In this document: in pieces, positions 23,728 through 39,573 of the stretch
Position numbering within the stretch: position 1 is the first letter of the stretch
Layout of the letters: the number at the start of each line of letters is the position of its first letter
Origin: Spirochaetia bacterium
GTDB lineage: Bacteria; Spirochaetota; Spirochaetia; UBA9216
Length of the DNA stretch: 64,000 bases
Assembly (NCBI GenBank): GCA_963677925.2
Contig: CAXXYH010000004.1
Location: 1,504,001 to 1,568,000, forward strand
Direction: 5' to 3'
The notes under the pieces: generated by a model
What the model saw: the letters and a program-made list of their open reading frames with translations, nothing else
The model's database searches: none
Told to the model about the DNA's origin: nothing
Made by a program: the position numbers and the translations under genes

Positions 23728-24669
23728 TCAGTTGTTTAAAACGGCGAGTGCTGTCTGTTCATCAATAATGAGATGGCTGAATATCCTTGATTTCAGTCCT
23801 GCAGAAACAGCCTTCGCTTTTTCAAGCCCGGCCACTATACAGAAAACCTTCGGTATTTTTTTCAGCTGTTCATGGCTGCAAACCATAAGCAGTTCTGTTG
23901 CATCGCCCGACAGAAAATTGCCGTCCTTATCGAAGGGCCAGCCGCAGATATCTCCTACTGCATTATTGAATACAGGGGATTTATCATCTTCGAGATCGAG
24001 GTATTTCCGCCATATTTCATCTGTAGTGTCTGAAGGCGGAACCCCGATTGATGTGACGGCTATATCGAGGGTATCCCAGTACTGGACAATCTTTTTCATC
24101 ATAGAGCTGTTTTTATACAGCTGCAGATCTTCAAGGCTTTCGGCCATTGCCGGTGCATGTATGAAGTTGGGAGTAGCATTCAGCTTTTCGGCAAAATCAC
24201 GAACCATTTCGTTTATCTGAAATCGTTTATGAGCACGGTTGCTCCCGCCGATCAGGGGTACTATGTTCAAATCGATATAGGTATTTTCATCATTGTAATA
24301 CTGGGTCATGAATTCATAGCAGGTACGGCCCCATGCAATACCGATGTTAAGCCCGGGAAGCAGCTCTTCGTTAAATATTTCTATTGCCCTTTCCGCGGCA
24401 AGTTTAAGCAGAAGGTTGGAATCTCTTATAGATGTGGGGACTACAAAACATCGCTCAAGACTGTATTTCTCAATAAGTCTTGAGGCAAGCGCCTCATTGT
24501 TTCCCAGAGGGTTTCTCAGTTTAATTTCAACTATTCCCGCTTCTCTTGCCTGGGTCAGAAACATCGAGATTGATGATCTGGAACGTTTTATGATTGAGGC
24601 AATTTCTTCCTGTTTTTTCCCTTCCAGATAATACATTCTGGCGACATTGTAAAGCAGCTGTTTATCCAC
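23728..24669 (-). CDS. SorC/DeoR-type sugar-binding transcriptional regulator
   Basis: VARMYYLEGKKQEEIA HTH; IGIAWGRT, AVGDICG and LIIDE motifs. Confidence 0.92.
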   Translation of the reverse strand: MDKQLLYNVARMYYLEGKKQEEIASIIKRSRSSISMFLTQAREAGIVEIKLRNPLGNNEALASRLIEKYSLERCFVVPTSIRDSNLLLKLAAERAIEIFNEELLPGLNIGIAWGRTCYEFMTQYYNDENTYIDLNIVPLIGGSNRAHKRFQINEMVRDFAEKLNATPNFIHAPAMAESLEDLQLYKNSSMMKKIVQYWDTLDIAVTSIGVPPSDTTDEIWRKYLDLEDDKSPVFNNAVGDICGWPFDKDGNFLSGDATELLMVCSHEQLKKIPKVFCIVAGLEKAKAVSAGLKSRIFSHLIIDEQTALAVLNN

Positions 24670-24735
24670 TGAGCACCTCTGAAGATATGATTATACCAGT
24701 TTCGCATGAGAATCTTCAAGTTGATTCATATTATG

Positions 24736-26199
24736 CTATTTTACTGCTTCAAGATACTTTTTAAACAGCTGAAATTTCCGTTCATAAACGGCTGTATTTT
24801 CTTTAACCGGCTCAATAACCCTGGAGACTCTTACCATTTCTTTGGCTGCTTCTGCAAGATCCTGATAGGTGCCTGCGCCTACAGCGGCTCCCATTGATGC
24901 TCCAAGGGTTCCAAGTTCATCACCCTCGGTTATTTCTACCGGAAGTCCGAGGATATCTGCAAAGATCTGAACCCATTCCTTTGATTTCGAAGCGCCGCCG
25001 GATATTCTTATTTTTCTGGGTTTGTCCCGGTATTTAAGCAGCTTGTCGATGTGAAGTCTGTGTCCGAAAACAACACCTTCATATATTGCCCGAAGCATAT
25101 GGGCTCTTGTGTGCCATCCATAGAGACCTATAAAACTCGAAGACATTTCTTCTTTCAGGTTCGAGCCGAATAGATACGGGAAAAATATTAGATCTGATTC
25201 GTCAGGTTTTACTGATTCTACCAGTTTGTTTGCCGCGTCATAGTCGGAACTTTCTATTATATTGTTCATAAACCATTCAAGGTTTGAAGCTGATGTTGGA
25301 CTTGCCTCGGTTACAAGCCAGTATCCGGGGATGCCGTAGATGCTTGTCATGAACAGTTCTTCGGCTCCCACCGGAGAACTGCTTATAAATTCGTTTATAC
25401 TCCAGGTGCCTGCAATTACAGTGAGATCCTTATCATCGGTAAGACCTGTAGCAATAGCGCAGGCGTGAATATCAAAAAAGCCTCCCATAACCGGTGTTCC
25501 GGCCTTAAGCCCGGTTGCCGCAGCAGTGCTTTCTGAAACATAACCGCAGATATCTGTAGAGTTTTTAAGCGGCGGAAGCTTTGGAAGTATCTCAGGGATT
25601 CCGAAATCAGCAAGAAGGTCTTCATCATAGTTTCCGGTAAGTACATTCACCATGTTGGTTCCTGAGTAGTCGGTTATTTCTGCATAAACTTCGCCGGTCA
25701 GTTTGAAACGGATATAGTCTTTGCACATCAGTATCCAGCGGGTTTTTTCTATAATAGAGGGATTATTATCTTTGAACCAGTTTACAAGTGCAACAGGCTG
25801 AGCTGCCCATATTGACTGAAGGGTCTTCTTATTGATTTTTTCAAATGTACCGTCACTGTACCACTTGTCAACATATGATTTTGCTCTCATATCTGTTGAT
25901 ATGATACCGTTCATAACAGCATCGCCGTTTTCATCGATCAGGAACATTCCGTTTCCGTGACCGGTCTGTGATATTCCTGCAATTTCGTCAGCAGATATAT
26001 CCGCCTGTGAGAGAGCCTCTTTTATGGCCTGGACATTGGCGTTCCAGAATTCGTTCATATCCTTCTCAGTATGACCCGATTCCGGGTAGAGCATTTCCAC
26101 CTTTCTGCTGGCAATTGATATCTCATTGCCTTTTGAATCGTAAATGCCGACCTTGCAGACTGTTCCGCCGTTGTCTATTCCCATAAATAACTTTCTCAT
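24736..26199 (-). CDS. FGGY carbohydrate kinase, L-xylulokinase (LyxK)-like
   Basis: GIDNGGT, TGHGNG, CKDYIRFKLTG, AGTWSINE, SPTSASNLEWF and WVQIFAD motifs; in an operon with a 3-epimerase and a 4-epimerase. Confidence 0.85.
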   Translation of the reverse strand: MRKLFMGIDNGGTVCKVGIYDSKGNEISIASRKVEMLYPESGHTEKDMNEFWNANVQAIKEALSQADISADEIAGISQTGHGNGMFLIDENGDAVMNGIISTDMRAKSYVDKWYSDGTFEKINKKTLQSIWAAQPVALVNWFKDNNPSIIEKTRWILMCKDYIRFKLTGEVYAEITDYSGTNMVNVLTGNYDEDLLADFGIPEILPKLPPLKNSTDICGYVSESTAAATGLKAGTPVMGGFFDIHACAIATGLTDDKDLTVIAGTWSINEFISSSPVGAEELFMTSIYGIPGYWLVTEASPTSASNLEWFMNNIIESSDYDAANKLVESVKPDESDLIFFPYLFGSNLKEEMSSSFIGLYGWHTRAHMLRAIYEGVVFGHRLHIDKLLKYRDKPRKIRISGGASKSKEWVQIFADILGLPVEITEGDELGTLGASMGAAVGAGTYQDLAEAAKEMVRVSRVIEPVKENTAVYERKFQLFKKYLEAVK

Positions 26200-26210
26200 C
26201 AACACACCTC

Positions 26211-27044
26211 TTAAAACATATTCTCTATTACGAAATTCTTTGCGGCTTTAAGCTCTTCCATTGTGTCAGTGCTTTCATCAGCCCACATCTCAATGACTAT
26301 CATCCCTTTGAATTCTGCAGTCTTTACAGCTTCTGATGCACGTTGAAAGTCTACAGTACCCTTGCCGAAGGGGATCCTTCTGACTACGCCGGGATTTGTA
26401 TCTTTTATGTGCATGGCTGCTATGTGCCCCCTGGCAGAGGCCAGATCCAGAACTATGTCGTTGCCCATAGCTGAACTGTTGCCCAGATCGGGATAGGCCT
26501 GAAGATAGGGGGAGTCAAACATTTTTACATAGGTCATAACGCGTTCTATGGAGGGCATGAAAATTATGCCCATATTTTCAATAGCAAGGGTTACTCCGCG
26601 CTTCTCTGCATAGCGGAGTGATTTTTCAAGATTGGAAAGGTAGTTATCCTGCGATTGCTGAGTACTCTCCTCATCATATGCCGCGTCGTAGCCGGCAAGC
26701 TGCACAATCCTTATCCCTGTGTCGGATGCAAAGTCTATCGCATCGAACATCAGCTTCATGCCTGCGGTACGGATATCTTCATAGCAGCTTCCAATCGGAT
26801 AACGCCGATGCCCGCTCAGGCACATGGTCGGAACTTTCAGGCCTGAATTGAGCACTGCCTTTACGAAATCTTTCTTTTCACTCATAGACCAGTTCATTCT
26901 TGAAAGTCTGTAGTCGCTCTCATCCACTGATATTTCGACAAAGCTGAATCCTGCTTCACCGGCATACTCAAGAAGCTGCGGCCATTCCATTCCTTCGGGA
27001 ACAGCTTTCTCATATAGTCCGAACTGGTAATTATCAATATTCAT
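26211..27044 (-). CDS. ulaE: L-ribulose-5-phosphate 3-epimerase (UlaE/SgbU family)
   Basis: GLYEKA, FVEISVDESD, MCLSGHRRYPIGS, IVQLAGYD, YPDLGN, HIKDT and EMW motifs. Confidence 0.9.
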   Translation of the reverse strand: MNIDNYQFGLYEKAVPEGMEWPQLLEYAGEAGFSFVEISVDESDYRLSRMNWSMSEKKDFVKAVLNSGLKVPTMCLSGHRRYPIGSCYEDIRTAGMKLMFDAIDFASDTGIRIVQLAGYDAAYDEESTQQSQDNYLSNLEKSLRYAEKRGVTLAIENMGIIFMPSIERVMTYVKMFDSPYLQAYPDLGNSSAMGNDIVLDLASARGHIAAMHIKDTNPGVVRRIPFGKGTVDFQRASEAVKTAEFKGMIVIEMWADESTDTMEELKAAKNFVIENMF

Positions 27045-27049
27045 AACTG

Positions 27050-27691
27050 TTATTTTGACTGTCCGTAATCTTTAAAAACATTAACTGCTTCAACAAACTG
27101 TTCATCTGTAAGAAGAACCGGTTCGCCCATAGATTTTGCTACAAAGAGGGTTTTTACAGCATCCTCAAGATATACTGCGGCATAAAGAGCTTCCTTGATT
27201 GTTTTACCGACAGTAATTACGCCGTGGTTTTTGAGGATTACCGCATTTGAATCACCGATGTTGTCTACGGTTTCTTCACCCATAGCAAGGCTTGCCGCAG
27301 AGCTGAAGGGAGCTACATGAACTTCACCGGCACAAGCGTTCGCAAGTGTTGTTACGGCATTGGGGACCTTGTCGTATACCATGCCGACTGCTGTTGCATA
27401 TACCTGATGTGTGTGGATAATTGCGTTTACTCTTTCCATGTTCTTATAAACATGAAGGAGGGCAATTGAATCAACGGAGGGTCTTCTTGTTCCCTCTATT
27501 ATGTTTCCGTCTATATCCATAACTACAATATCATCTGCAACCATGGTGTCGTATGCCATGCCTGAAGGAGTTACAAGTATTTTGTTATCCGGCATTCTGC
27601 TGCTGACATTTCCCCCTGAAAGTGCAATGAGGTTGTATTCTTTCAGCGCCTGGCCTGTTTTAATGAGTTCATTTTTCTCTTTTTCGTACAT
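27050..27691 (-). CDS. Class II aldolase/epimerase, probably L-ribulose-5-phosphate 4-epimerase
   Basis: GGNVS, TPSG, HTH and NHG Zn-binding motifs; PSVD (Asp as in AraD, not Glu as in FucA); operon context. Confidence 0.75.
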   Translation of the reverse strand: MYEKEKNELIKTGQALKEYNLIALSGGNVSSRMPDNKILVTPSGMAYDTMVADDIVVMDIDGNIIEGTRRPSVDSIALLHVYKNMERVNAIIHTHQVYATAVGMVYDKVPNAVTTLANACAGEVHVAPFSSAASLAMGEETVDNIGDSNAVILKNHGVITVGKTIKEALYAAVYLEDAVKTLFVAKSMGEPVLLTDEQFVEAVNVFKDYGQSK

Positions 27692-27788: not shown

Positions 27789-29621
27789 TCAGATGAAATG
27801 AGGGATCAGTATTGTAAATACACAGCCCGATTCAGGATGGTTTTCGACGGTAATTTTCCCGTTCATTTTATTAACTATTCCGTAAGATACCGACAGGCCT
27901 AGACCCAGGTTGTTTCCTGTTGCGTTTTTCTTTGAGAAAAACGGCAGGAAAATATTCTTTTTATCATCCTCGCTTATTCCAGGGCCGGTATCCCTGAATA
28001 CCATCTTCGCATAGCTGATTCCGCCTTCCGAAACTGATGTAAGTGATATTTCAAGTCTGCCTTCGCTGTTAACCGCTTCGAAACTGTTTTTGATGATATT
28101 GAGAATAATCTGCTTTACCTCTGTCCGGTTGCAGGCAACCAGAACTGCTGATTCGGGATCTGAATAATTTATTTCAATATTTCTTTTTTTTGCATTGTAG
28201 GAGATAAGCTGAATAATGTGACCAAGTACTTCGGATAGATCAATTACCTCGGTCTTTTCACTCGCACTGTCGCTGAATGATACCAGGTTGCTGACAATCT
28301 GTACGATGCTTTCAACCTCTTCCTCTATGTTATCAAGCACCTTGTCCAGCCGACCATCCGGAAGCATGGTCCTCAGATAGTCAATTTCATTGACTATTAT
28401 CTCAAGCGGGTTGTTGATTTCATGGGATACCCCGGCTGCAAGCAGTCCTACAGACCCCAGTTTTTCTGAAAAGTTAAGCTTCTCCCGGAGTGATTCCTGC
28501 TCGGTAATGTCTCCGACAATAATCATACTTCCTATGTACATAGTTCCGTCATAGATAGGATAGGTGGTTATTGTATTGATGGTCTCGTTTCCGCTGTTGT
28601 GTTTCAGCCGGACTGTGAAGGTTTCAAGCTGTCTTTTTTTAAGTGATTCAAAAACAGATTCAAGGATTTCCGGATTTCCGTTCAGGTTGAAAAACTCATC
28701 AATGCTCTGTCCGATAACAGGCTTATCACCGATTGAGAAGTAAGTCTTGGCATTGTTGTTAAGCAGTCTGAGTATCCGGTACTCATCAACTACAATCAGG
28801 TTCATGGGCAGGTTTTCAAGTATGGCCCTGTTGTATTTAAGCAGCTGGTAGAACTCCTGAGTGGTTGTGTCCAGACTGCTTTCCTGTACAACCTGAGTGT
28901 ATGCAAGCTTTATCAGATTGATCTTGTCGATATTTTTGATGGATTCGGTAGTAAGAATCCTTCCGTTTCTGATTACCGATACCCTGTCTGCAAAAGTGTA
29001 GACATCATCAATTCGATGAGTAATGAAAATAATGCTTGTGCCTTCCTCTTTTCTCTTTTTAAGTTCGGGAATGATTCTGTTAATATCGACAGCTGTCATC
29101 TTCTCAAAGGTTTCATCAAGTATCAGAAGCGCAGGGTCAGTGTGAAGGTGTTTGAGCAGTTCCAGCAGAACCTTCTCGGTATCCTTAAGAGTGCTCAGTC
29201 TTCGATGGCTGCGGAAATTGAAGCCGAGTGAGTCAAAAAAATCATCTGCCTTTCTGTTCAGTTCCTTGTTTGTGAAAAAACTCTTCATGAAGAAACGGGG
29301 ATCGTTGGCAAAAAGGTTCTGCGCGATTGAGAGCCTCTCATACTGCTCAATTTCCTGCATAACTATCTCTATTCCCTGCTCCTTTGCGGAACCCGGCTGA
29401 AAATATGCAGTCTGACTGGCATCCCAGAAAAGCTGTCCGGAATCAGGTTTTACATGGCCGGAAAGGATCATTGCCAGCGAAGATTTGCCCGCACCATGCT
29501 CTCCTATGACTGCATGAATTTCGCCCTTTCGGACGCTGAAATCAATTTTGCGCAGTACACTTGTCTGGCCGTAATTTAAACAGATTTTCTTTAGTTCTAT
29601 GATGTTCGTATCAGAGGACAT
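27789..29621 (-). CDS. Soluble histidine kinase with an N-terminal sugar-ABC nucleotide-binding domain and a PAS domain
   Basis: aa 1-245 RbsA/MglA NBD1-like (GEIHAVIGEHGAGKSS, Q-loop VMQE, LLILDE, ITHR); PAS at about 255-375; H-box AGVSHEINNPL; NIIKNSFEA, DTGPGI and GLGL boxes; no transmembrane segment. Confidence 0.9.
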   Translation of the reverse strand: MSSDTNIIELKKICLNYGQTSVLRKIDFSVRKGEIHAVIGEHGAGKSSLAMILSGHVKPDSGQLFWDASQTAYFQPGSAKEQGIEIVMQEIEQYERLSIAQNLFANDPRFFMKSFFTNKELNRKADDFFDSLGFNFRSHRRLSTLKDTEKVLLELLKHLHTDPALLILDETFEKMTAVDINRIIPELKKRKEEGTSIIFITHRIDDVYTFADRVSVIRNGRILTTESIKNIDKINLIKLAYTQVVQESSLDTTTQEFYQLLKYNRAILENLPMNLIVVDEYRILRLLNNNAKTYFSIGDKPVIGQSIDEFFNLNGNPEILESVFESLKKRQLETFTVRLKHNSGNETINTITTYPIYDGTMYIGSMIIVGDITEQESLREKLNFSEKLGSVGLLAAGVSHEINNPLEIIVNEIDYLRTMLPDGRLDKVLDNIEEEVESIVQIVSNLVSFSDSASEKTEVIDLSEVLGHIIQLISYNAKKRNIEINYSDPESAVLVACNRTEVKQIILNIIKNSFEAVNSEGRLEISLTSVSEGGISYAKMVFRDTGPGISEDDKKNIFLPFFSKKNATGNNLGLGLSVSYGIVNKMNGKITVENHPESGCVFTILIPHFI

Positions 29622-30918
29622 CTGTAATACCGTATTTAGTCATCTTGCTGTACAGGGTTGTCCTTGAAATACTCAGTTCCTCTGCCGCTTTCTTTTTATT
29701 ATATGAGTGTCTAATAAGAGTTTTGATTATAAGCTCTTTTTCAACTGCCATAACCGGAGTGAGTGTGGCTGTTTCATCAATAGTTTTTACCGGATGCGAC
29801 ATGGGCAGATCTTCAGGAAGCATGATCCCGTTTGAACAAATTGTTGCACCGTAATTGACGGCGGCTTTCAGCTCTCTCACATTTCCCGGCCAGTCATAAT
29901 TCAGAAGCAGTTCCATAGCCTGGTCGGAAATTGAAACACGGGGTTTTGCTTCCTCATCAGAATAACGGTTGAGAAAGTAATCGATCAGCAGGGGGATGTC
30001 TTCCTTCCGATCTCTAAGCGGCGGAATATAAACAGAGGCGCAGTTGAGTCTGTAATACAGGTCGCTTCTAAAAAGCTTGTCGGAAACAAGTTCTTCAAGA
30101 TTCCTGTTTGTAGCCGCTATGAAGCGGACGTTAATCTTTATGATTTCCTTACCGCCGAGTCGTCTTATTTCATTTTCCTGAATGGCCCGAAGGATTTTTG
30201 CCTGAATAGATAGGGGCATGTCCCCAAGTTCATCCAGGAAGAGAGAGCCGTTATCGGCCTGTTCAAAAACCCCCTTGAAGCAGTCATTTGCCCCGGTGTA
30301 TGAACCCTTCTCGTGTCCGAAGAGCTCGTTGTCCAGCAGTGATTCCGGAAAGGCGGCACAGTTTATCTTTACGAAGTTTTTTTCTTCTCTTGGAGAGTAT
30401 TTATGAATGAGGTCGGCAAGCAGTTCTTTTCCGGTGCCGCTTTCCCCGAGAATCAGTACCGAGAGATTTGACTGCGCAAGTTTCAGTGATTTCTTTATTA
30501 CATCAACCATCCTGCTGTTGCGTGTCTGTATCTCGGGAATCGCCGGAAGCTCCCTGGATTCTTCTCTCAAAAGTGCTTTTACCTGTTCCAGCAGGGTAGG
30601 GAATCTTACAGGCTTTTTGAGGTATTCATTAGCTCCAAGCTTAATTGCCTGTACTGCTGTTTCAACGGTTGCAAAACCGGTTATCATCAGAACAGGAAGA
30701 TCCGGCATCATCTTCTTGATCATAGTCAGAGCGTCAATTCCGCTTTCCTCTCCGATCTTGATATCAACAATCGCAAGATCGATTGGGCAGCACTGGAGAA
30801 TTCCCGATGCTGTGCTTATGTCGGGAGCTGTGGCGCATTCTATTCCTACAGAACCGAAATTACGTGAAAGGGTATCAAGAATCTTCTGGTTATCATCAAG
30901 TATTAAAATTCTGCTCAT
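29611..30918 (-). CDS. NtrC-family sigma54-dependent response regulator
   Basis: Receiver domain (ILDD, VDIKI, TGF, LKKP), GESGTGKE, GHEKGSYTGA, LFLDE, WPGNVREL, Fis-type HTH. Confidence 0.93.
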   Translation of the reverse strand: MSRILILDDNQKILDTLSRNFGSVGIECATAPDISTASGILQCCPIDLAIVDIKIGEESGIDALTMIKKMMPDLPVLMITGFATVETAVQAIKLGANEYLKKPVRFPTLLEQVKALLREESRELPAIPEIQTRNSRMVDVIKKSLKLAQSNLSVLILGESGTGKELLADLIHKYSPREEKNFVKINCAAFPESLLDNELFGHEKGSYTGANDCFKGVFEQADNGSLFLDELGDMPLSIQAKILRAIQENEIRRLGGKEIIKINVRFIAATNRNLEELVSDKLFRSDLYYRLNCASVYIPPLRDRKEDIPLLIDYFLNRYSDEEAKPRVSISDQAMELLLNYDWPGNVRELKAAVNYGATICSNGIMLPEDLPMSHPVKTIDETATLTPVMAVEKELIIKTLIRHSYNKKKAAEELSISRTTLYSKMTKYGITDVL

Positions 30919-30982
30919 CGGTGGAAATACTTTAACACGGTTTTTTATGCAGTCAAAGATAAAACTTTACCAAACAGGGAAC

Positions 30983-31033
30983 TGAACATTTTCTGAACAT
31001 GTAATTCGGACAGATCTGTCCAGATATTGAACA
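30983..31033. promoter_or_regulatory. Candidate upstream activator sites for the sigma54 regulator
   Basis: TGAACATTTTCTGAACA (30983-30999) and TGTCCAGATATTGAACA (31017-31033, TGT-N11-ACA), about 75-125 bp upstream of the -24 element; perfect palindrome GGACAGATCTGTCC at 31008-31021. Confidence 0.6.
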
Positions 31034-31105
31034 CATTGTTTTTGACAGTTTTTTCCGGAATCTGTTAACTTATTCTGATTATGTGACTTAGCTGTTTTTC
31101 GGATT

Positions 31106-31124
31106 TTTGGCATGCTTACTGCAT
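31106..31124 (+). promoter_or_regulatory. Sigma54 (-24/-12) promoter of the sugar ABC operon
   Basis: TTTGGCATGCTTACTGCAT: GG at 31109-31110, N10, GC at 31121-31122. Confidence 0.8.
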
Positions 31125-31131
31125 GTATAGA

Positions 31132-31150
31132 TTTTGACAAATGTCATAAA
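31132..31150. promoter_or_regulatory. Operator-like palindrome at the predicted sigma54 start site
   Basis: TTTTGACAAATGTCATAAA; the TGACAAATGT core also occurs at 27760. Confidence 0.6.
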
Positions 31151-31178
31151 ATAATTCAATCACAAAAGGAGAGAGATT

Positions 31179-32255
31179 ATGAAGACTAGTAAAGTTCTTG
31201 CTCTTGTACTTGCTGTACTGACAGTGTTCGCACTGCTGGGTTTCAGCGGCTGTGCAAAAGAAGAGGCAGCAGCCGCACCTGCAGCTGCTGATACAGAAGA
31301 GGTTAGTTCACCTTTTATCGGCGACCCCAGCGAAACATATTATATGTGTGTTATGGTGTCAGGTGTAGAATACTGGTTCCCTGTTTATGAAATGATGAAG
31401 CAGGCCGGACAGCAGCTTGGTGTTGATACTGTTTATACAGGAACTCCTGAATACGACGTTAACAAGCAGCTTGCTGTATTTGAGCAGATTCTTGCTAAAA
31501 AACCTGCCGGTATCCTTCTTCACCCGATGAATCCGGATGCATTCATTGAACCAATCAACAGAGCCGCAGAAATGGGAATTCCTGTTGTTACATTTGCTGC
31601 TGACTCACCCAATTCAAAGCGTGTTTCCTACATTACTTCAGATAACACAAGAGAAGGTAGTTTTGCTGCCGACACAATCGCTAAGGATATGGGAGAAAAA
31701 GGTGAAGTTGCCGTTCTTGAAAATCCGGGACAGGATAACCACGACAAGCGTGTTAAGGCATTTATCGAAAGAATTGAAACTGCATATCCAAACATGAAAG
31801 TTGTTGCCAGAGCTGCTACAAACCAGGATCCCAACAAGGCATACCAGGCTCTTATGACAATGGCACAGGCTCATCCTAACCTCGGCGGTGTTTTCATGCC
31901 GGAAGCCAGCTCGGGAATGGGTGCTGCACAGGCTGCCAAAGAACTCGGAACAGGCATCAGGGTAATGTGTGTTGACGTTAATGCAAAGGTTCTTGATATG
32001 CTTAAAGCCGGTGAAATGTTTGCTGCTCTCAATCCGAACCAGGGTCTTCAGGGATACTACGGAATGCTTCTGCTTTATCTTGCAAAGCACTCAGACATGG
32101 TTGATCCGATGAATGACTACAAGGATGCAGGCTACAACCCGACCGGAATACCTCTGCTTGATAACGGCCTTGCTGTTGTAACAAAAGACAATGCTGATAA
32201 CTTCTACTGGGACAAGTATCTCAAGAGAAGAGGTACCAAGGGTATCAACGAATAA
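31179..32255 (+). CDS. Sugar ABC transporter substrate-binding lipoprotein
   Basis: FSG-C lipobox, RbsB-type fold motifs (GIPVVTFAADSP, YITSDN); AGGAG RBS. Confidence 0.92.
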   Translation: MKTSKVLALVLAVLTVFALLGFSGCAKEEAAAAPAAADTEEVSSPFIGDPSETYYMCVMVSGVEYWFPVYEMMKQAGQQLGVDTVYTGTPEYDVNKQLAVFEQILAKKPAGILLHPMNPDAFIEPINRAAEMGIPVVTFAADSPNSKRVSYITSDNTREGSFAADTIAKDMGEKGEVAVLENPGQDNHDKRVKAFIERIETAYPNMKVVARAATNQDPNKAYQALMTMAQAHPNLGGVFMPEASSGMGAAQAAKELGTGIRVMCVDVNAKVLDMLKAGEMFAALNPNQGLQGYYGMLLLYLAKHSDMVDPMNDYKDAGYNPTGIPLLDNGLAVVTKDNADNFYWDKYLKRRGTKGINE

Positions 32256-32266
32256 TCAGAATTTTC

Positions 32267-32297
32267 AGGCCGTATCCTCACCTGAGGATGCGGCTTT
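32267..32297 (+). terminator. Intercistronic stem-loop after the binding-protein gene
   Basis: AGGCCGTATCCTCA-CC-TGAGGATGCGGCTTT. Confidence 0.6.
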
Positions 32298-32322
32298 CTT
32301 ATCATTACTACGGAGGAAGTAA

Positions 32323-33831
32323 TTGAGTGATAATTTTGTACTGGAAGTAGAGGGTATAATAAAGGATTTTCCGGGTACACGGGCACTTGATAATGTAAGC
32401 CTGGGGCTTAAAAAAGGTGAAGTTCTGGCTCTTGTAGGCGAGAACGGCGCAGGAAAATCCACCCTGATGAACATAATAGACGGTGTACTTCTTCCTGATG
32501 AGGGTTCGATCCGCATAAACGGAGAAGAAGTGCAGATAAGAAATCCGCTGGATGCTCAGTTACATGGAATAGGTTTTGTCCATCAGGAAATAGCGCTTTG
32601 CCAGCATGTCACTGTAGCGGAAAATGTTTTTATGGCAGAGCTTAACAATACTAAAAGTAAATTTGTTAACTACAAGGATTTATATAAAAGAGCTGCTGAA
32701 ATCCTGAAGCCTCTGGGAGATGTTGATCCCCGAAAGGTTGTCAGTGAACTTTCAATATCAAAGCAGCAGATAGTAGAAATTGCGAAAGCATTAAGTCTTG
32801 ACTGTAAAATACTGATTCTGGATGAGCCTACGGCCGCACTGACCGAGGCTGAAACAGATGCTCTGTTCACTATTATGAGAGAGCTCAAAAGCAAGGGGAT
32901 CAGTATTATATATATAAGCCACAGGATGGCTGAAATCTTCTCACAGTGCGACAGAGTTGCGATACTAAGAGACGGCACTTACTGCGGAGAGCTTAATATT
33001 TCCGAGACTGACTCGAAGGAAGTTGTCAGCAGGATGGTCGGCCGGGAAATATCGGACCTGTATCCGCCGAAGTTTCATGGTGTTTGCACTGAGCAGGATG
33101 AACTTTTGAGGATAGAAAATTTCTCTGACGGAAACAGGTTTAAAGATATCTCCTTTACCCTGCATAAGGGAGAAATCCTGGGTCTTTCGGGACTGATAGG
33201 TGCCGGCCGAAGTGAGATAGTCAAGGCTGTATGCGGACTTTTTCCGAAAATTGAAGGCCGCACTTATTTCAACGGTAAAGAAATAAAAATCAGCAGCTAT
33301 CAGGATGCCATCAACTACGGTATAGTTTATCTCACCGAGGATCGTAAAGTGGAGGGGGTTTTCCTGGAGAAGTCCATTCAGCTTAATATCTCGGCTCTTA
33401 ACCTGGATCAGGTTTCAACAAGCGGGATGGTTGATGTTTCAAAGGAGAAGAAACAGGCAGCCGAATTTGCCGGGAAACTGAATGTTAAATATGCCAGTCT
33501 GTCTCAGCATGCTTCATCCCTGTCGGGAGGAAACCAGCAGAAGGTTCTTATTGCCAAGCTTCTTTCGGTCAATCCGAAGGTTGTAATTATGGATGAACCT
33601 ACTAGGGGTATCGATGTCGGAGCCAAATCTGAAATTCATAAGCTGATAAGAACTCTCACCTGTGAGGGAATCGGGGTTATAATGATTTCATCAGAACTGC
33701 CCGAACTGATAGGAATGAGCGATCGTGTCCTTGTTATGCACGAGGGGTCGAGCTGCGGTATTATTACCGGTGATGATATAAACGAAAAGAAAATAATCCA
33801 TATGGCTTCCGGTCTGGAAAAGATGGAATAA
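32323..33831 (+). CDS. Sugar ABC transporter ATP-binding protein (two NBDs, CUT2)
   Basis: GENGAGKST, LDEPT, GLIGAGRSE, LSGGNQQK and DEPTRGIDVGAK motifs. Confidence 0.95.
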   Translation: MSDNFVLEVEGIIKDFPGTRALDNVSLGLKKGEVLALVGENGAGKSTLMNIIDGVLLPDEGSIRINGEEVQIRNPLDAQLHGIGFVHQEIALCQHVTVAENVFMAELNNTKSKFVNYKDLYKRAAEILKPLGDVDPRKVVSELSISKQQIVEIAKALSLDCKILILDEPTAALTEAETDALFTIMRELKSKGISIIYISHRMAEIFSQCDRVAILRDGTYCGELNISETDSKEVVSRMVGREISDLYPPKFHGVCTEQDELLRIENFSDGNRFKDISFTLHKGEILGLSGLIGAGRSEIVKAVCGLFPKIEGRTYFNGKEIKISSYQDAINYGIVYLTEDRKVEGVFLEKSIQLNISALNLDQVSTSGMVDVSKEKKQAAEFAGKLNVKYASLSQHASSLSGGNQQKVLIAKLLSVNPKVVIMDEPTRGIDVGAKSEIHKLIRTLTCEGIGVIMISSELPELIGMSDRVLVMHEGSSCGIITGDDINEKKIIHMASGLEKME

Positions 33832-33842
33832 GGGAGAAGATA

Positions 33843-34832
33843 ATGAGCGAAATTGCAAACAACCGGTTTGCTGTATTAAACCGGATTTTTACAAAGATTA
33901 AGGGCTTCAGGGAAGGAACTCTCATTCTGATTATCATAGGTGTCTGTATTCTAATGAATTTTCTGTCGCCTTATTTCATGACCTGGAACAACTGGAAGGC
34001 TATATTCCTTTCATTTGCAACCGAAGGTATCGTCGTTGTAGGAATGACTGTAATGCTGGTTCTGGGCGGAATCGACCTTTCAGTAGGTGCTGTAATGTGT
34101 CTGGCAATGTGTATTGCCGGAAAGCTTTTCCTTCTTGGTGTTGATCCCTGGGTTGCAAGTATTATTGCCCTGGTCATAACCGGCGGAATAGGTGCCATAA
34201 TGGGTATTCTTGTTACGAGGGTGGGGCTTGTGCATTTTATTACAACACTGGCATTTATGGGTATTGCCCGCGGTGCATGCTTTGTAATAACTCAGGGAAC
34301 TCCGTTGTCCCTTTTCACACTTCCCTCAAGCTTCAAGTTTCTCGGACAGGGAACAATCGGACCCTTTCCTTTTGTAATAATAATTTTTCTTGTGATAGTA
34401 ATATTCAGTGATTATATGCTTAGAAATTCAACTCTTCTACGGAAGGTTTTCTACACAGGAAGTAATGAAAAAGCTGCAAAGTTTTCAGGTATAAGAATCA
34501 ACCGGGTAAAAATCGGCGTGAGTACACTCTGCTCACTTCTTGCGGGGCTGGCCGGTATAATCTATATGGCACGTTTCGGTGCCTCTACTCCCGGATTCGG
34601 AGTAGGACTTGAAATGACTGCAATTTCCGCTGCCGTTATCGGCGGAGCCAGCCTTACCGGAGGTGAGGGAACTGTATTCGGATCAATCCTTGGAATCGCC
34701 CTTCTTTCAATCATAACCAGTTCACTTATTCTTCTTGATGTATCTGTTTACTGGCAGGATCTTATTAAGGGTATTATTCTTCTTTTTGCAGTATCAATAG
34801 ACCATCTGCAGCATATAAAGAGACAGGCATAA
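33843..34832 (+). CDS. Sugar ABC transporter permease
   Basis: GGIDLSVG, GSNEKAAKFSGI and AISAAVIGGASLTGGEG motifs. Confidence 0.95.
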   Translation: MSEIANNRFAVLNRIFTKIKGFREGTLILIIIGVCILMNFLSPYFMTWNNWKAIFLSFATEGIVVVGMTVMLVLGGIDLSVGAVMCLAMCIAGKLFLLGVDPWVASIIALVITGGIGAIMGILVTRVGLVHFITTLAFMGIARGACFVITQGTPLSLFTLPSSFKFLGQGTIGPFPFVIIIFLVIVIFSDYMLRNSTLLRKVFYTGSNEKAAKFSGIRINRVKIGVSTLCSLLAGLAGIIYMARFGASTPGFGVGLEMTAISAAVIGGASLTGGEGTVFGSILGIALLSIITSSLILLDVSVYWQDLIKGIILLFAVSIDHLQHIKRQA

Positions 34833-35092: not shown

Positions 35093-36493
35093 ATGCGACA
35101 GATGCACATGGTCAAAAAAATACCGGGCGAGAAGTTTACACCCTTTGCCCTCGCGCAGAAGCTTAATGCTGCTGTAATACTTGAATCATCATCGCTGAGC
35201 AAGGGACGTGAGAGATATTCCATCCTTCTTATCAAAGAAGCATTCCGTATTGTTCAGAAAGGAACAGACTGCGCACTTGTTACGAAAGACGGCCGGAAGA
35301 AAAAGATAGTCAACGGCGGCCGCGATATTCTTGATTCAGTGAAGAAATTTGCCCTTTTTCACAAGGGCGTTGAACACGATTTTCCCTTTCCCTCCGGCGG
35401 AATAGGCTTTTTATCATTCGAGTTCGCAAGGTTCTGTGATGACATAAACTTTGTTGAACGCTCGGATCAGCTCGGACTTCCTGATGCCTGCTTTCTCTTC
35501 GGAAACGATTTTCTTATCTTCGATCACTACACTGATGAAATCTACATCCTGATTATCAACTACCCCGGATACGAGGTCGATCTCGAGAAGGAACTTAAGA
35601 AAGTAGAAAGCAAGATATTTGATCTCAACTTCAACTACATGGCTGAACCGCCGCAGACGGACCCTGCTGAAATTGTTTCATCGAAGGCCGTAGAAGAGGA
35701 ATACAAAAAGAATGTCGGGATAATCCGGGATGAGGTGATTAAGGGGAATCTTCTTCAGGGTGTACCTTCCCGAAGGCTTGAGATAAAAACCGATATGAAG
35801 GCAATTGATGCATACCGCAATCTTCGCTCATCAAATCCATCCCCCTATCTTTTCTTTCTGGATTTCGGCGAGTACCAGCTCTACGGAGCTTCACCCGAGG
35901 TTCATATCAAAGTGAAAAACGGCAAAGTAACTATCCGTCCGATAGCGGGTACCCGTCGAAGAGGTAAGAACGAAGCCGAGGATATTGCTCTGGCTGATGA
36001 ACTTCTGGCAGATGAAAAGGAACGTGCGGAACATCTTATGCTAATAGATCTTGCCCGTAACGACCTTGGTAGGGTATGTAAAACCGGAACTGTAAAAGTA
36101 ACTGAATACATGGTGATAGAGAAATACTCCAAGGTGATGCATATAGTCTCTCAGGTTGAAGGTGAGCTTCGGGATGATAAGGACAGCACAGATGCCGTCA
36201 GGGCAAGCTTTCCGGCGGGAACCGTCTCCGGCGCACCCAAGATCCAGGCTATAGAAACCATCTCCAGAATTGAAAAATTCAACCGCAGCTTTTATGCCGG
36301 CCTTGTCGGTTATATGGATTCTTCGGGAGACATAGATACATGTATAACTATCCGCAGCGGACTCAAGCGGCACGACAGGCTCTATCTGCAGGCGGGCGGC
36401 GGCATCGTTTTTGATTCCAACCCGGAACGCGAACTTGAAGAAACCAATGAAAAACTAAGGGCGGCCGCTCTTGCCGCCGGAATACAGGTGTGA
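35093..36493 (+). CDS. trpE: Anthranilate synthase component I
   Basis: ILESS, NPSPY, GASPE, PIAGTRRRG, DEKERAEHLMLIDLARND and FPAGTVSGAPK motifs. Confidence 0.95.
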   Translation: MRQMHMVKKIPGEKFTPFALAQKLNAAVILESSSLSKGRERYSILLIKEAFRIVQKGTDCALVTKDGRKKKIVNGGRDILDSVKKFALFHKGVEHDFPFPSGGIGFLSFEFARFCDDINFVERSDQLGLPDACFLFGNDFLIFDHYTDEIYILIINYPGYEVDLEKELKKVESKIFDLNFNYMAEPPQTDPAEIVSSKAVEEEYKKNVGIIRDEVIKGNLLQGVPSRRLEIKTDMKAIDAYRNLRSSNPSPYLFFLDFGEYQLYGASPEVHIKVKNGKVTIRPIAGTRRRGKNEAEDIALADELLADEKERAEHLMLIDLARNDLGRVCKTGTVKVTEYMVIEKYSKVMHIVSQVEGELRDDKDSTDAVRASFPAGTVSGAPKIQAIETISRIEKFNRSFYAGLVGYMDSSGDIDTCITIRSGLKRHDRLYLQAGGGIVFDSNPERELEETNEKLRAAALAAGIQV

Positions 36494-36502
36494 GGCAGGA
36501 AT

Positions 36503-38116
36503 ATGATTGTAATAATTGATAACTATGATTCTTTCACGTACAACGTCTTTCAGGAACTTTCAAAGCTGACCGAGACCCCGGTACAGGTTTTCAGAAACAA
36601 CAGGATTACTGTTAAGGAAATTGAAGAAATGAATCCTGAAAGCCTGATAATCTCACCGGGCCCCGGAACTCCTGCAGATGCAGGTATTTCCATCGAGGCT
36701 ATCAAACACTTTGCCGGGAAGATTCCAATCCTGGGCATCTGCCTTGGACATCAGGCTATCGCCGAAAGTTTCGGCGGGCGGATAGTCAGTGCGCAGAATA
36801 TCGTTCACGGAAAGGTTGAAAACATATCGCTGGACGGAAGGGGACTTTTCAGAAACCTCCCGGTATCAGCCGATTTCACGCGCTATCATTCACTTGCTGC
36901 CGAACGCTCAACCCTGCCGGAATGCCTGGAGATTACCGCCGAGAGCGCCGACGGCGAAATAATGGGGCTTAGGCACAAGGATTATGTGATTGAAGGTGTC
37001 CAGTTTCACCCTGAATCAATCGGATGTATTGATGCAGGTAAAATTATTTTAAAGAATTTTCTGAGGTACAAGCTTGAACCTCTGGATAAGACAGCCCTGC
37101 TGGTCAAGGTTCAGAAGGGTGAGGATTTAAGCAGGAAGGAAGCGGCCGACTTCATGGATGAGCTTACCGAAGGCTCGCTTAATCCCGCCTATACAGCGGC
37201 TGTTCTGTCGGCGCTGAACTGCAAGGGAATTGCTGCTGATGAAATCGCCGGATGCGCAGAGGTCCTCAAACGCAAGAAGGTTCATCTTGAAACTTCCTCT
37301 GATGTTCTTGATATAGTCGGCACCGGCGGCGACGGGCACCATACTTTCAATATCAGTTCTCTCTCTGCTCTTATACTTGCCGCGTCAGGAATCACGGTTG
37401 CAAAGCATGGCAACCGTGCAGTAAGTTCAAAAAGCGGAAGCGCCGATTTCTACCGGGAAATGGGAATCCGCTATAACATGAGCCCTGAAAAATCGGCTGA
37501 ACTTCTTGAAAAAGAACAGTTTGCCTTTCTGTTTGCCCCCCTCTTTCACAAGGCTATGGCCCATGCGGCTCCGGTACGAAGAGAAATGGGCGTTAAAACA
37601 ATAATGAACCTGCTCGGCCCACTGGTTAACCCCGCCGAGGCTGCCTATCTGCTTATCGGTGTATATGACAATGAGCTCTGTCCGGTGATGGCAAGAGCTA
37701 TGAAGATGCTCGGAGCAAAACGTGTAATGACGGTCCACAGCAATGACGGACTTGATGAGATCTCGCCGGCAGCACCGACAAGGATATTCATGATTGATGA
37801 TGCCGGTGTTGAGACTGATTATATTTTTGATCCGAAGGACGCCGGAATCGAAGGGTTTACACTCGAAGATCTGAAAGGCGGACTTGCCGATGAAAATGCC
37901 GTTATCGGCAGAAGTATAGTCGAAGGCAGCGGGCCCGCAGCAATAAAAGCAGCCTGTCTGCTCAATGCCGGAGCTGCTATGGTTGTGACCGGTAATGCCG
38001 AATCCATTATAGAAGGATATGAGAAGGCCAAAAAGGTTCTTGAATCCGGAGCTGTTAAGAAGAAGCTTGAGTCTCTAATCAGAAGCAGTATTCTGCTGGA
38101 GGAAAGAGTTGACTGA
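36503..38116 (+). CDS. trpGD: Fused anthranilate synthase component II / anthranilate phosphoribosyltransferase
   Basis: IDNYDSFTYN, GICLGHQ and QFHPES (TrpG), then DIVGTGGDG, KHGNRAVSSKSGSAD and DGLDEIS (TrpD). Confidence 0.95.
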   Translation: MIVIIDNYDSFTYNVFQELSKLTETPVQVFRNNRITVKEIEEMNPESLIISPGPGTPADAGISIEAIKHFAGKIPILGICLGHQAIAESFGGRIVSAQNIVHGKVENISLDGRGLFRNLPVSADFTRYHSLAAERSTLPECLEITAESADGEIMGLRHKDYVIEGVQFHPESIGCIDAGKIILKNFLRYKLEPLDKTALLVKVQKGEDLSRKEAADFMDELTEGSLNPAYTAAVLSALNCKGIAADEIAGCAEVLKRKKVHLETSSDVLDIVGTGGDGHHTFNISSLSALILAASGITVAKHGNRAVSSKSGSADFYREMGIRYNMSPEKSAELLEKEQFAFLFAPLFHKAMAHAAPVRREMGVKTIMNLLGPLVNPAEAAYLLIGVYDNELCPVMARAMKMLGAKRVMTVHSNDGLDEISPAAPTRIFMIDDAGVETDYIFDPKDAGIEGFTLEDLKGGLADENAVIGRSIVEGSGPAAIKAACLLNAGAAMVVTGNAESIIEGYEKAKKVLESGAVKKKLESLIRSSILLEERVD

Positions 38117-39572
38117 CATGAGCATGGATGACAGGATGAAGGCGTCTCGGGATATCAGAGCCGAAATAACTGCCCGGAGGATTGAGGATATAAAAAGGCT
38201 TGGCCCATCACAGGGAATTGAGCTGCCCGAAGAACGTGAAGTTCCCCTGACTTCCTTCCTGGGCATATCTCCGGTTATCTGTGAGATAAAACGTAAATCT
38301 CCGTCAGTAAAGAATATAGACACCTCACTTGATCCGGTAGAGCTTGCAAGAAAATACTACAAGGCGGGTATCCGTAATATCAGTATTCTTACTGAGCAGA
38401 ACTACTTCGGAGGTTCGCTTACCGATTTGATTAAGGTTAAGAAAGCCTTTCCGCATGTAGCGGTTCTGCGAAAAGATTTCCTGGTCAGTGTAGAGGATAT
38501 CGACATCAGCTACCGGGCGGGTGCAGATGCCTGTCTGCTTATTGCTTCACTGCTTGAGACCGATGTGCTTACCGCTATGCATAAGCGCTGTGGTGAACTT
38601 GGAATTACCGCGCTGGTTGAGCTTCATGACCAGGATGATGTGATTAAGGCTGAAAACTTTAAACCGGAGCTGACCGGAATAAACAGCCGTAACCTGAAGA
38701 CCTTTACTATTGATCCTCTTCAGCCGCTTAAAATAAGATCGTTGATCAACTGGCCTTGCAGGGTTGTTTATGAATCAGGAATAAAAACCGGATACGATAT
38801 TGATTTTGTATCCGGAAGCGGATTCGGCGGAGTGCTGGTAGGTGAGTCGGCAGTGAAAAACCCAGATTTTACAAAAACTCTTCTTGAGCGGTTTATTCCT
38901 GAATGCGCCAACGGCAGATTTGCTTTCTGGACTGAACTTTGCAACCGGTACAGGCCCGGCAGGCCTCTTGTCAAAATCTGCGGAATCACTAAGCGCAAGG
39001 ATTTGATTAAGGTAAAGGAGCTTGGTGCTGATATGGCGGGTTTCATACTTGCAGATTCGCCCCGTAGGGTAGATGCCGATTTTATAAACTCCTGCAGTGA
39101 TCTAGGAATTATGAAAGTCGGTGTTGTTGTTCTTAAGCGGGACGAAGAGCTTCCGCAGCAGTACATCGAACTGCTTGAGTCTGGCACTCTTGATGCGATT
39201 CAGTTTCACGGCGATGAGGGGCCGGAGATATATTTAAAGTATCCGGGGTATAAGGCCTTCCGTATCAAGGATAAGGATGCTGCCGCTGCTGCTGCAGAGG
39301 CTCCGGGAGCCGCAGTGCTTATTGATGCATTCAGTAAAGAAGCTCACGGCGGAACCGGAAAGCAGATTGATTCTGAATACGTATCGGCAGTAGCCGGAAA
39401 GCGGGCGCTCTGGCTTGCAGGCGGAATAAACCCGGATAATGTCTGCGGATTAATCCGTGAATACAGCCCGGCCCTGATCGATATCTCAAGCGGAGTCGAA
39501 TCTGCTCCCGGAATAAAAGATCATCAAAAACTTGAAGAGCTGTTTCAGCAGATAGAACAAGGAGTAGGCTGA
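38109..39572 (+). CDS. trpCF: Fused indole-3-glycerol phosphate synthase / phosphoribosylanthranilate isomerase
   Basis: EIKRKSPS, LRKDF, GINSRNL and ESGI (TrpC), then VKICGIT, QFHGDE, GGTG, LAGGINPDN and SSGVE (TrpF). Confidence 0.93.
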   Translation: MTDMSMDDRMKASRDIRAEITARRIEDIKRLGPSQGIELPEEREVPLTSFLGISPVICEIKRKSPSVKNIDTSLDPVELARKYYKAGIRNISILTEQNYFGGSLTDLIKVKKAFPHVAVLRKDFLVSVEDIDISYRAGADACLLIASLLETDVLTAMHKRCGELGITALVELHDQDDVIKAENFKPELTGINSRNLKTFTIDPLQPLKIRSLINWPCRVVYESGIKTGYDIDFVSGSGFGGVLVGESAVKNPDFTKTLLERFIPECANGRFAFWTELCNRYRPGRPLVKICGITKRKDLIKVKELGADMAGFILADSPRRVDADFINSCSDLGIMKVGVVVLKRDEELPQQYIELLESGTLDAIQFHGDEGPEIYLKYPGYKAFRIKDKDAAAAAAEAPGAAVLIDAFSKEAHGGTGKQIDSEYVSAVAGKRALWLAGGINPDNVCGLIREYSPALIDISSGVESAPGIKDHQKLEELFQQIEQGVG

Positions 39573-39573
39573 T

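Follow-up and report, generated by a model that had tools for sequence, protein, structure and literature searches.

A sugar-importer ATPase domain joined to a soluble histidine kinase in a two-component family that adjoins CUT2 importers

What does the ATPase domain of a sugar importer do at the N terminus of a histidine kinase? The question is raised by a stretch of 64,000 nucleotides from a Spirochaetia bacterium (assembly GCA_963677925.2, contig CAXXYH010000004.1, positions 1,504,001 to 1,568,000 of the forward strand), here called the window, in which a single open reading frame (ORF) on the minus strand encodes a kinase whose first part is related to the first nucleotide-binding domain (NBD1) of the ATP-binding cassette (ABC) ATPases of the CUT2 sugar importers. 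The locus is a two-component system of a conserved, uncharacterized family that is large, old and apparently unstudied. Among the loci that could be assessed, the kinase-regulator pair always adjoins a complete CUT2 importer, and docking of the kinase on that importer is weighed below as a tentative answer. The features concerned, in window coordinates, are the following.

27789..29621 (-): fused sensor kinase, 610 amino acids, ATG start, consisting of NBD1-like domain, PAS, HisKA (DHp) and HATPase_c
28896..29621 (-): NBD1-derived input domain, residues 1-242, from Pfam, NCBIfam and motif counts
28869..28895 (-): linker between nucleotide-binding domain (NBD) and PAS, residues 243-251, with a predicted local distance difference test score (pLDDT) <50, variable and gapped in the family alignment
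28494..28868 (-): PAS domain and N-cap helix, residues 252-376, from PAS_9, PAS_4, PAS_10 and PAS matches and AlphaFold2 secondary structure
27792..28493 (-): kinase core, residues 377-610, DHp and catalytic ATP-binding domain, from HisKA and HATPase_c
29611..30918 (-): NtrC/AtoC-type sigma-54-dependent response regulator, 435 amino acids, from Response_reg, Sigma54_activat, AAA_lid_14 and HTH_8
31009..31022 (no strand): 14-nt perfect palindrome GGACAGATCTGTCC, candidate activator site, read by eye
31108..31124 (+): sigma-54-type -24/-12 element TGGCAT-N5-CTGCAT in intergenic sequence, aligned in related loci L002, L003 and L115
31179..32255 (+): CUT2 periplasmic sugar-binding protein (Peripla_BP_4, 187.6 bits) with an N-terminal hydrophobic segment
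32323..33831 (+): CUT2 ATPase with two NBDs (RbsA model, 522.9 bits)
33843..34832 (+): CUT2 permease, RbsC-like, BPD_transp_2, the single permease gene of the operon, from Pfam and NCBIfam

The regulator and kinase genes overlap by 11 bp (29611-29621), and the complete importer (binding protein, ATPase, permease) is divergent from this pair. An earlier note on this DNA had described the 610-amino-acid ORF with its NBD1-like domain, PAS and NtrB-type core, a kinase without a membrane helix, the overlap with an NtrC-type regulator, the divergent importer with an ATPase of its own, the NBD motifs given below and a sigma-54 promoter before the importer; all of these were borne out by the ORF list, Pfam, NCBIfam, hydropathy, the translation and the intergenic sequence.

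In Pfam searches of the kinase, ABC_tran was matched at residues 23-172 (77.7 bits, cut-off 25), PAS_9/PAS_4 at about 265-376, HisKA at 392-452 (38.6 bits, cut-off 26.9) and HATPase_c at 499-607 (72.8 bits, cut-off 26.4). Residues 5-262 aligned with the first half of CUT2 ATPases in NCBIfam (LsrA, YtfR, AraG, AlsA, RbsA and MglA), the matched spans being model positions 9-257 of 510 for LsrA and 2-248 of 492 for YtfR; because each model was matched over half its length, all CUT2 equivalogs scored far under their full-length cut-offs (LsrA, 146.6 bits against 586). Residues 254-608 aligned with AtoS (NF008468, 200.6 bits, cut-off 646), and no NCBIfam model reached its equivalog cut-off on the kinase; by these matches the core is AtoS-like and the protein itself is not AtoS. 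The phospho-acceptor H400 lies in the SHEINNPL motif of the DHp domain and was invariant in all 37 aligned family members, as were N508, N512, D544, G546, G548, F561 and G573-G575. The NtrB-type core is intact. Its best solved match was ThkA of Thermotoga maritima (PDB 3a0r; residues 260-607, E = 5.1e-29), and no solved chain covering both the NBD and the kinase halves was found. The kinase is soluble as judged from hydropathy, because no 19-residue window exceeds a Kyte-Doolittle mean of 1.6 (highest value 1.12; the permease has 102 windows >1.6). An AlphaFold2 model of the kinase had a mean pLDDT of 80.8 and a predicted template-modeling score of 0.43, with a confident NBD (block pLDDT mostly 82-94, dips to 69-75), a PAS domain with its N-cap helix, a long DHp hairpin and a catalytic domain. 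The low-confidence linker (residues 243-251) lies between the conserved last helix of the NBD and the PAS N-cap helix.

How far does this architecture recur? A word-based protein search gave 2801 proteins at E ≤ 1e-5 among 7999 scored candidates; the best 120 matches had 98-100% query cover, 41-100% identity and lengths of 598-634 amino acids, and every one carried ABC_tran, HisKA and HATPase_c. The sources named were Spirochaetes, candidate division KSB3 (Moduliflexus, Vecturithrix) and Desulfomarina, and family members were also present on contigs of 2.6, 5.4 and 7.3 Mb. Locus scans with the whole protein or a full-length alignment returned mostly ordinary kinases or ABC ATPases. An alignment of the NBD alone gave 74 loci from species-representative genomes, most of them from Spirochaetota and others from Desulfobacteraceae, Poribacteria and a metagenome-assembled genome labeled Clostridium, and the full-length-alignment scan added a Planctomycetota locus. 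Of 401 sampled Spirochaetota genomes, 13, including that of the window, matched at E ≤ 1e-60, which is a lower bound since three candidates were scored per genome. The fused kinase is single-copy in the genome of the window. One locus (L049:4944-11788) holds two back-to-back fused kinase/regulator pairs (603 amino acids on the minus strand, 604 on the plus strand), each facing its own CUT2 operon, and several further genomes have two or more copies, e.g. the records behind L002/L031, L112/L124 and L122/L150.

That the fusion is an assembly chimera or a frameshift artifact was considered and rejected, its probability being practically negligible: the same architecture of 600-630 amino acids came from many sources, including the three megabase contigs, it was found in all 120 best matches and in 66 genes of 65 loci, and the kinase NBDs form one clade. 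A split, two-gene form was sought among short proteins, of which 75 matched at E ≤ 1e-20 and six at E ≤ 1e-43, four of these six on contigs <6 kb; there is no evidence for a regular two-gene version of the kinase, and short stand-alone forms are rare. Three leads to other arrangements came from the ESM Atlas (score 0.83): an 852-amino-acid protein with ABC_tran, GAF_2 and HisKA and an 826-amino-acid protein with HisKA, HATPase_c and ABC_tran, for both of which the commonest phylum was Actinomycetota, and a Spirochaetota cluster of 515 amino acids for which ABC_tran, HisKA and HATPase_c are listed and a PAS family is not.

For synteny, stop-to-stop ORFs of 85 candidate loci were compared with the proteins of the window using phmmer (E ≤ 1e-5). 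Seven duplicate loci were removed and 13 with truncated, split or ordinary ABC ATPase matches were set aside, leaving the 66 genes in 65 loci; locus L001, 98% identical to the window, is not independent of it. In L004 (9968-11817) the family gene falls into ORFs of 482 and 77 amino acids and in L169 (10237-11811) the family ORF has 525 amino acids and a late start; both were excluded from the counts, the neighboring ATPase is also split into two ORFs in both, and pseudogenes or assembly errors are possible there. An NtrC-like regulator (at least 350 amino acids) lay directly upstream on the same strand in 62 of the 66 genes, and in 62 of the 63 with at least 1400 bp of upstream DNA, the exception being L138. 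A CUT2 permease and an ABC ATPase were found within 6 kb of all 31 genes that had at least 6 kb on both sides, with a two-NBD ATPase in 28 of the 31. Over the whole set both were found for 55 of 66 genes, and the four genes with neither all had short flanks. As a control, 73 loci of non-fused NtrB-like kinases were taken from the full-length-alignment scan; a CUT2 permease and ATPase were present in one of these (1/42 among loci of at least 15 kb). Where a binding protein had been missed, eight of ten sampled gap ORFs were Peripla_BP_4 or Peripla_BP_1 proteins and the other two were dehydrogenases. In some related operons (L124:11868-13073 and L112:5351-6301) the kinase is separated from the importer genes by a gene for a zinc alcohol dehydrogenase or one like shikimate/quinate dehydrogenase. 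These genes fit differing substrates (polyols, quinate-like compounds) in different loci.

Is the importer the target of the regulator? The regulator exceeded the Pfam cut-offs for receiver, sigma-54 AAA+ and HTH_8 domains, and its sigma-54 contact loop reads GSYTGA in the translation, a variant of GAFTGA; it scored 396 bits against the AtoC equivalog (NCBIfam cut-off 714) and is not AtoC. The sigma-54 element lies 55 nt before the ATG of the binding protein. It was missed by a consensus scan allowing one mismatch because it has two mismatches to TGGCAC-N5-TTGCA; in an alignment of the window with L002, L003 and L115, the -24/-12 element was conserved. Sigma-54 sites facing the ABC genes within 450 bp of the regulator start were present in 42 of 62 loci, and in 7 of 62 a sigma-54 site followed the kinase gene on the kinase strand (either position, 47/62); the background density predicts 0.023 sites per 450-bp stretch. 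The genome of the window contains rpoN (408 bits, cut-off 277). Given the synteny and the facing sigma-54 sites, the importer operon is likely the target of the regulator. Three TGAACA words upstream of the promoter are candidate enhancer-like sites, and the palindrome lies about 90 nt upstream of the -24 element. No clear conserved upstream activator site was found in a repeat search or in the four-locus alignment, in which the palindrome was not conserved, and its assignment as an activator-binding site is a guess.

Recurrence and synteny thus exclude that the fusion is a one-off, a chimera or a gene without a link to importers. The association with a sigma-54 regulator and a CUT2 importer, which the earlier note had proposed to test, is clear from synteny, control and promoters; docking, the mechanism put forward there, stays tentative. 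Its statement that no protein with an NBD-kinase architecture had been characterized agrees with full-text literature searches, in which no account of the NBD-PAS-kinase architecture was found, subscription journals and supplements being outside their reach.

What has the NBD kept of an ATPase? In the window it has Walker A GEHGAGKSS (40-48), Q89, Walker B LLILDE (165-170, with E170) and H202 in ITHR; LKDTEK (145-150) stands where the signature (LSGGQ, or LSxGQQQ in CUT2 NBD1) belongs, and DETF where NBD1 has DEPT. Motifs were counted in 103 distinct family NBDs and in 63 neighboring NBD1s. The Walker A lysine (K46) and the Walker B aspartate (D169) were present throughout both sets (103/103 and 63/63), the Q-loop glutamine (Q89) in 102/103 and 61/63, the catalytic glutamate (E170) in 97/103 and 63/63, and the H-loop histidine (H202) in 91/103 and 63/63. 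All five occurred together in 87 of the 103 family NBDs, and the aromatic A-loop residue (Y17) in about 89%. Position 42 was H in 102/103 kinase NBDs and N in 61/63 NBD1s; P171 of DEPT was present in 0/103 and 63/63; the third signature glutamine (Q151), found in 57/63 NBD1s, was not among the four commonest residues in the kinases; and LSGG occurred in 0/66 fused genes and 2/63 NBD1s. Judged by these motifs, the kinase NBD retains the ATP-site residues and has lost the signature and DEPT. Since the signature motif is required in trans and is missing here, the domain probably binds ATP without turning it over. Two subfamilies differ at residue 43 (window 29493-29495), GEHGAGK in 57/103 including the window protein and GEHRAGK in 46/103; in the latter type HR of the H-loop is replaced by HD or HN, and the signature region (S.AQQ) is closer to that of NBD1.

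The domain is as conserved as a working one, with a mean column conservation of 0.547 against 0.561 for NBD1s. Relative to NBD1, conservation is most reduced at the signature and most increased over residues 211-243, the C-terminal sheet and last helix around the IDKINLIKLAYTQ motif. In the post-Walker A helix, the Q-loop and the first helix of the helical subdomain, the consensus is nearly identical to that of NBD1; in ABC proteins these segments line the coupling-helix cleft.

A conserved ATP site with a lost signature, for which slow or no hydrolysis is expected, would also suit an NBD that reads cellular ATP/ADP (energy state) independently of any transporter, and KdpD, a kinase with an N-terminal P-loop domain, counts as a precedent. 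We consider this very improbable, since it would give no sugar specificity to the regulator of one among at least 30 sugar importers and leaves unexplained the CUT2 association (31/31 against 1/42 controls) and the retained consensus of the Q-loop and helical subdomain.

The same motifs bear on a contact with the transporter ATPase. The ATPase in the window has the usual CUT2 asymmetry, with the Walker A lysine in NBD1 (GENGAGKST, weak signature LSISKQQ, DEPT, SHR) and the LSGG signature in NBD2 (GLIGAGRSE, LSGGNQQ, DEPT, SSE replacing the H-loop). Among neighboring ATPases NBD2 has LSGG in 62/62 and the Walker A lysine in 7/62. Of the NBD1 share in the consensus site, the kinase NBD still has the Walker A lysine, Walker B, the catalytic glutamate and the H-loop; the signature, which NBD1 supplies to the degenerate site, has been lost. 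It might thus pair with the ATPase, through an NBD1-like:NBD2 contact or with the idle ATPase as in MalK-MalT, and read its occupancy or activity; in Escherichia coli the importer subunit MalK directly helps control the regulator of its regulon, as a working ATPase that sequesters a soluble activator, with no kinase and no fusion. The fidelity to the CUT2 class fits such a contact as well as it fits docking on the permease. We nevertheless hold it improbable: in 28 of the 31 assessable loci NBD2 forms one chain with its own NBD1, no free NBD2-like gene recurs in the related loci, and in the 48 complete loci compared below the kinase NBD tracks the neighboring NBD1 or NBD2 no better than the kinase core does.

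Where did the NBD come from, and does it follow its neighbor? In a FastTree phylogeny of 191 NBD sequences rooted on NBD2, the 66 kinase NBDs fell on one side of a single branch (Shimodaira-Hasegawa-like support 98), within a parent clade of these 66 and 59 NBD1s. Mean patristic distances were 2.07 within the kinase clade and 2.17 among NBD1s. Because the two divergences are equal, the phylogeny indicates that the fusion is old and single, derived from NBD1 of CUT2 ATPases, and that it has not been repeatedly re-made from the neighboring gene. NBD1 of the neighboring ATPase shares just 29% identity with the kinase NBD, and some 17 other ATPases of the genome rank higher.

Distance matrices of the 48 complete loci were compared by mirror-tree, using p-distances since PAS was saturated with corrected distances. 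Pearson coefficients were 0.75-0.94 within the signaling block (NBD, PAS, core and regulator domains), 0.87-0.92 within the transporter block (permease, NBD1 and NBD2) and 0.56-0.67 between the two blocks. Close kinase cores (p < 0.45) were found in 98 locus pairs, and in 41 of these the permeases were very different (p > 0.65). These two blocks, and close cores that adjoin very different permeases, indicate that the kinase-regulator cassette has been re-paired with unrelated CUT2 transporters. Every assessable partner is CUT2 despite this shuffling. If the link were purely cis-regulatory, nothing would restrict the partners to CUT2, and the class fidelity argues that CUT2 components are needed for function.

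Could the need be met by the PAS domain alone? PAS would then be the real sensor of an imported sugar or catabolite in the cytoplasm, and the NBD would serve for ATP-dependent dimerization or as a tether and carry no transporter signal. PAS is present in all 37 aligned members and diverges more than any other region of the kinase (mean p-distance 0.74; NBD and core, 0.58-0.60), as expected if ligands vary between loci; moving the cassette among unrelated CUT2 transporters would be easy with cytoplasmic sensing, and the NBD does not co-evolve with the permease. The correlation of PAS with the permease, however, is not above that of the core or the NBD: no kinase domain tracked the permease preferentially in the 48 loci, the difference between PAS and core being -0.025 (interval -0.103 to 0.05). 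This explanation also leaves unexplained the 31/31 CUT2 neighbors and an NBD conservation equal to that of working NBD1s, and, as a lead only, the 515-amino-acid Spirochaetota cluster (score 0.83) has no reported PAS. We judge it unlikely.

The reading that we favor, tentatively and at slightly under an even chance, is that the NBD-like domain engages the CUT2 transporter, most likely at the coupling helices of the permease, and relays its motion to the kinase, activating the importer operon. On the cytoplasmic side of the permease, the NBD-like domain would occupy the coupling helices in place of the ATPase, without energizing transport. Movements of the permease that depend on binding protein and substrate would alter how far apart the two NBDs of the kinase dimer stand, the change would run via the conserved last NBD helix and PAS to the DHp helices and switch the kinase, and the phosphorylated regulator would turn on the neighboring importer operon via the sigma-54 promoter. 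In favor of docking are the CUT2-only neighbors despite re-pairing and the retained consensus of the Q-loop and helical subdomain. When the permease, for which no solved homologue was found by sequence, and NBD residues 1-255 were submitted to complex prediction, the score was 0.59 (best of three controls, 0.00), which is a pass: in calibration 58 of 80 complexes of solved structure passed, as did 2 of 110 mismatches, and of these 7 of the 80 and both mismatches passed with scores ≤ 0.60; such a pass indicates likeness to a docking NBD, not binding, and a relative of the true partner can pass. Prediction runs agreed in at least 88% of contacts, with partner pLDDT of at least 80. The prediction lends docking weak support.

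Several results weigh against docking. The correlation with the permease was no higher for the NBD (r = 0.60) than for the core (r = 0.64; difference -0.033, bootstrap 95% interval -0.072 to 0.012), and the real NBD1 correlated with the permease at r = 0.92 (difference to the kinase NBD 0.324, interval 0.228-0.425); corrected distances gave the same picture. In the presumed contact segments, similarity to the NBD1 of the same locus did not exceed similarity to other NBD1s (0.334 against 0.328, one-sided Wilcoxon p = 0.13), nor was this difference above that in other segments (p = 0.44), in a test of low power because the EAA-like motif of the permease is itself highly conserved. E90, beside the Q-loop glutamine, is variable in the kinases and kept in 60/63 NBD1s. 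The second P-loop glycine is arginine in 46/103 family NBDs, so ATP binding may not be universal in the family; the window protein has the canonical glycine. The NBD-PAS linker is variable and gapped in the family alignment and modeled at pLDDT <50, and there is thus no obvious rigid signal path. A docked kinase would have to compete with the ATPase of the importer itself, which is present and complete in 28 of the 31 assessable loci. Finally, at least 30 other CUT2 ATPases in the genome leave specificity unexplained: generic docking would bring cross-talk, and specific docking would bring co-variation, which was not seen. The 5.04-Mb genome has at least 30 ORFs of about 500-550 amino acids that match the kinase NBD at E ≤ 1e-22 and are like two-NBD CUT2 ATPases; the organism is very rich in sugar ABC importers.

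A further step from docking is possible and appears somewhat doubtful, with about one chance in three. The kinase dimer would replace the ATPase on a fraction of permease dimers, so that binding protein, permease and kinase would form a non-transporting sugar receptor portable to any CUT2 transporter. That such a sensor module could be portable is suggested by the many unrelated CUT2 importers with which the cassette has been re-paired.

The surrounding genes bear on the substrate. The kinase gene is followed directly by four genes on its own strand (window 23728-27691, minus strand), assigned as follows.

27050-27691 (-): class II aldolase / L-ribulose-5-phosphate 4-epimerase-like gene
26211-27044 (-): L-ribulose-5-phosphate 3-epimerase (TIGR00542, 294.9 bits, cut-off 272)
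24736-26205 (-): FGGY xylulokinase-like kinase
23728-24669 (-): DeoR/SorC-type regulator

Together these genes resemble an L-xylulose / L-ribulose-5-phosphate route, and on this account the importer substrate may be a pentulose, a pentitol or an ascorbate-like compound. The N terminus of the binding protein appears lipoprotein-like by eye in the translation. Just after the permease, at 35093-40788 (+), translations read by eye alone resemble a tryptophan-biosynthesis cluster, with apparent genes for anthranilate synthase component I, a glutamine amidotransferase-phosphoribosyltransferase fusion of 537 amino acids, a TrpC-TrpF-like fusion of 487 amino acids and a TrpB-like protein.

In the transporter-kinase links that have been studied (Bce, Pst-PhoU-PhoR, CbrA), contact is made between separate proteins or a membrane transporter domain is fused. 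Here the cytoplasmic motor domain of an ABC importer is the input domain of a soluble kinase, and the family goes with a single transporter class, a pattern that suggests a so far unstudied wiring of sugar uptake to gene control. If docking is true, there would be a third way to pass a periplasmic binding-protein signal into the cell, and a natural portable part for sugar-responsive circuits; if the receptor is true as well, an ABC importer would be re-used as a transmembrane signaling device for extracellular sugar. If the NBD does not dock, the question remains what a signature-less, otherwise conserved NBD senses. The family offers a direct experimental handle on the coupling of NBD movements to non-transport outputs.

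How does the kinase compare with known systems? It is closest by homology to CUT2 NBD1 (RbsA, LsrA, YtfR, AraG, AlsA, MglA, XylG), to which residues 5-262 are homologous, as sister or nested in the tree. Like NBD1 it has the Walker A lysine, the Q-loop, Walker B with its glutamate, the H-loop and the A-loop aromatic residue. Unlike NBD1, it is followed by PAS and a kinase core with no second NBD, N42 is replaced by H, the DEPT proline and Q151 are lost, and the C-terminal sheet and last helix are newly conserved. ThkA (3a0r) is a PAS-DHp-catalytic domain chain like residues 260-607 and has no counterpart of the NBD.

Three signaling systems are alike in logic. BceS contacts the permease BceB, PhoR is membrane anchored, the regulators of both are of the OmpR type, and CbrB is an NtrC-type sigma-54 activator. 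In BceRS-BceAB of Firmicutes, the kinase lacks a ligand-binding domain of its own and is informed by an ABC transporter, whose genes are controlled by the kinase and its regulator; BceS is a membrane protein and a separate polypeptide complexed with a peptide-antibiotic-resistance transporter (PMC4513084, PMC10314905). Here, unlike in Bce, a soluble kinase with a covalently fused NBD is paired with a sigma-54-dependent regulator and adjoins a binding-protein-dependent importer; with no membrane helix and a CUT2 importer the kinase falls outside the Bce-type modules, and the logic may be alike. PhoU bridges PhoB/PhoR and PstSCAB2 and acts on the PAS domain of PhoR (PMC13577022, PMC9239213). The order of NBD, adaptor, PAS and kinase in PstSCAB-PhoU-PhoR resembles the NBD-PAS-kinase order here; there the proteins are separate and PhoU is the adaptor, whereas here an NBD homologue, not the ATPase of the transporter itself, is fused before PAS. 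In CbrA of Pseudomonas, part of a transporter is covalently fused to a histidine kinase (PMC13022988, PMC7096432). The fused part of CbrA is a membrane SLC5 domain that transports the ligand itself, whereas here it is a cytoplasmic NBD with a separate, complete transporter alongside, and the kinase is therefore not a transceptor kinase of the CbrA type. The kinase belongs to none of the Bce, PstSCAB-PhoU-PhoR, CbrA, MalK-MalT and KdpD families, and Bce, Pst and CbrA are the closest to it by logic.

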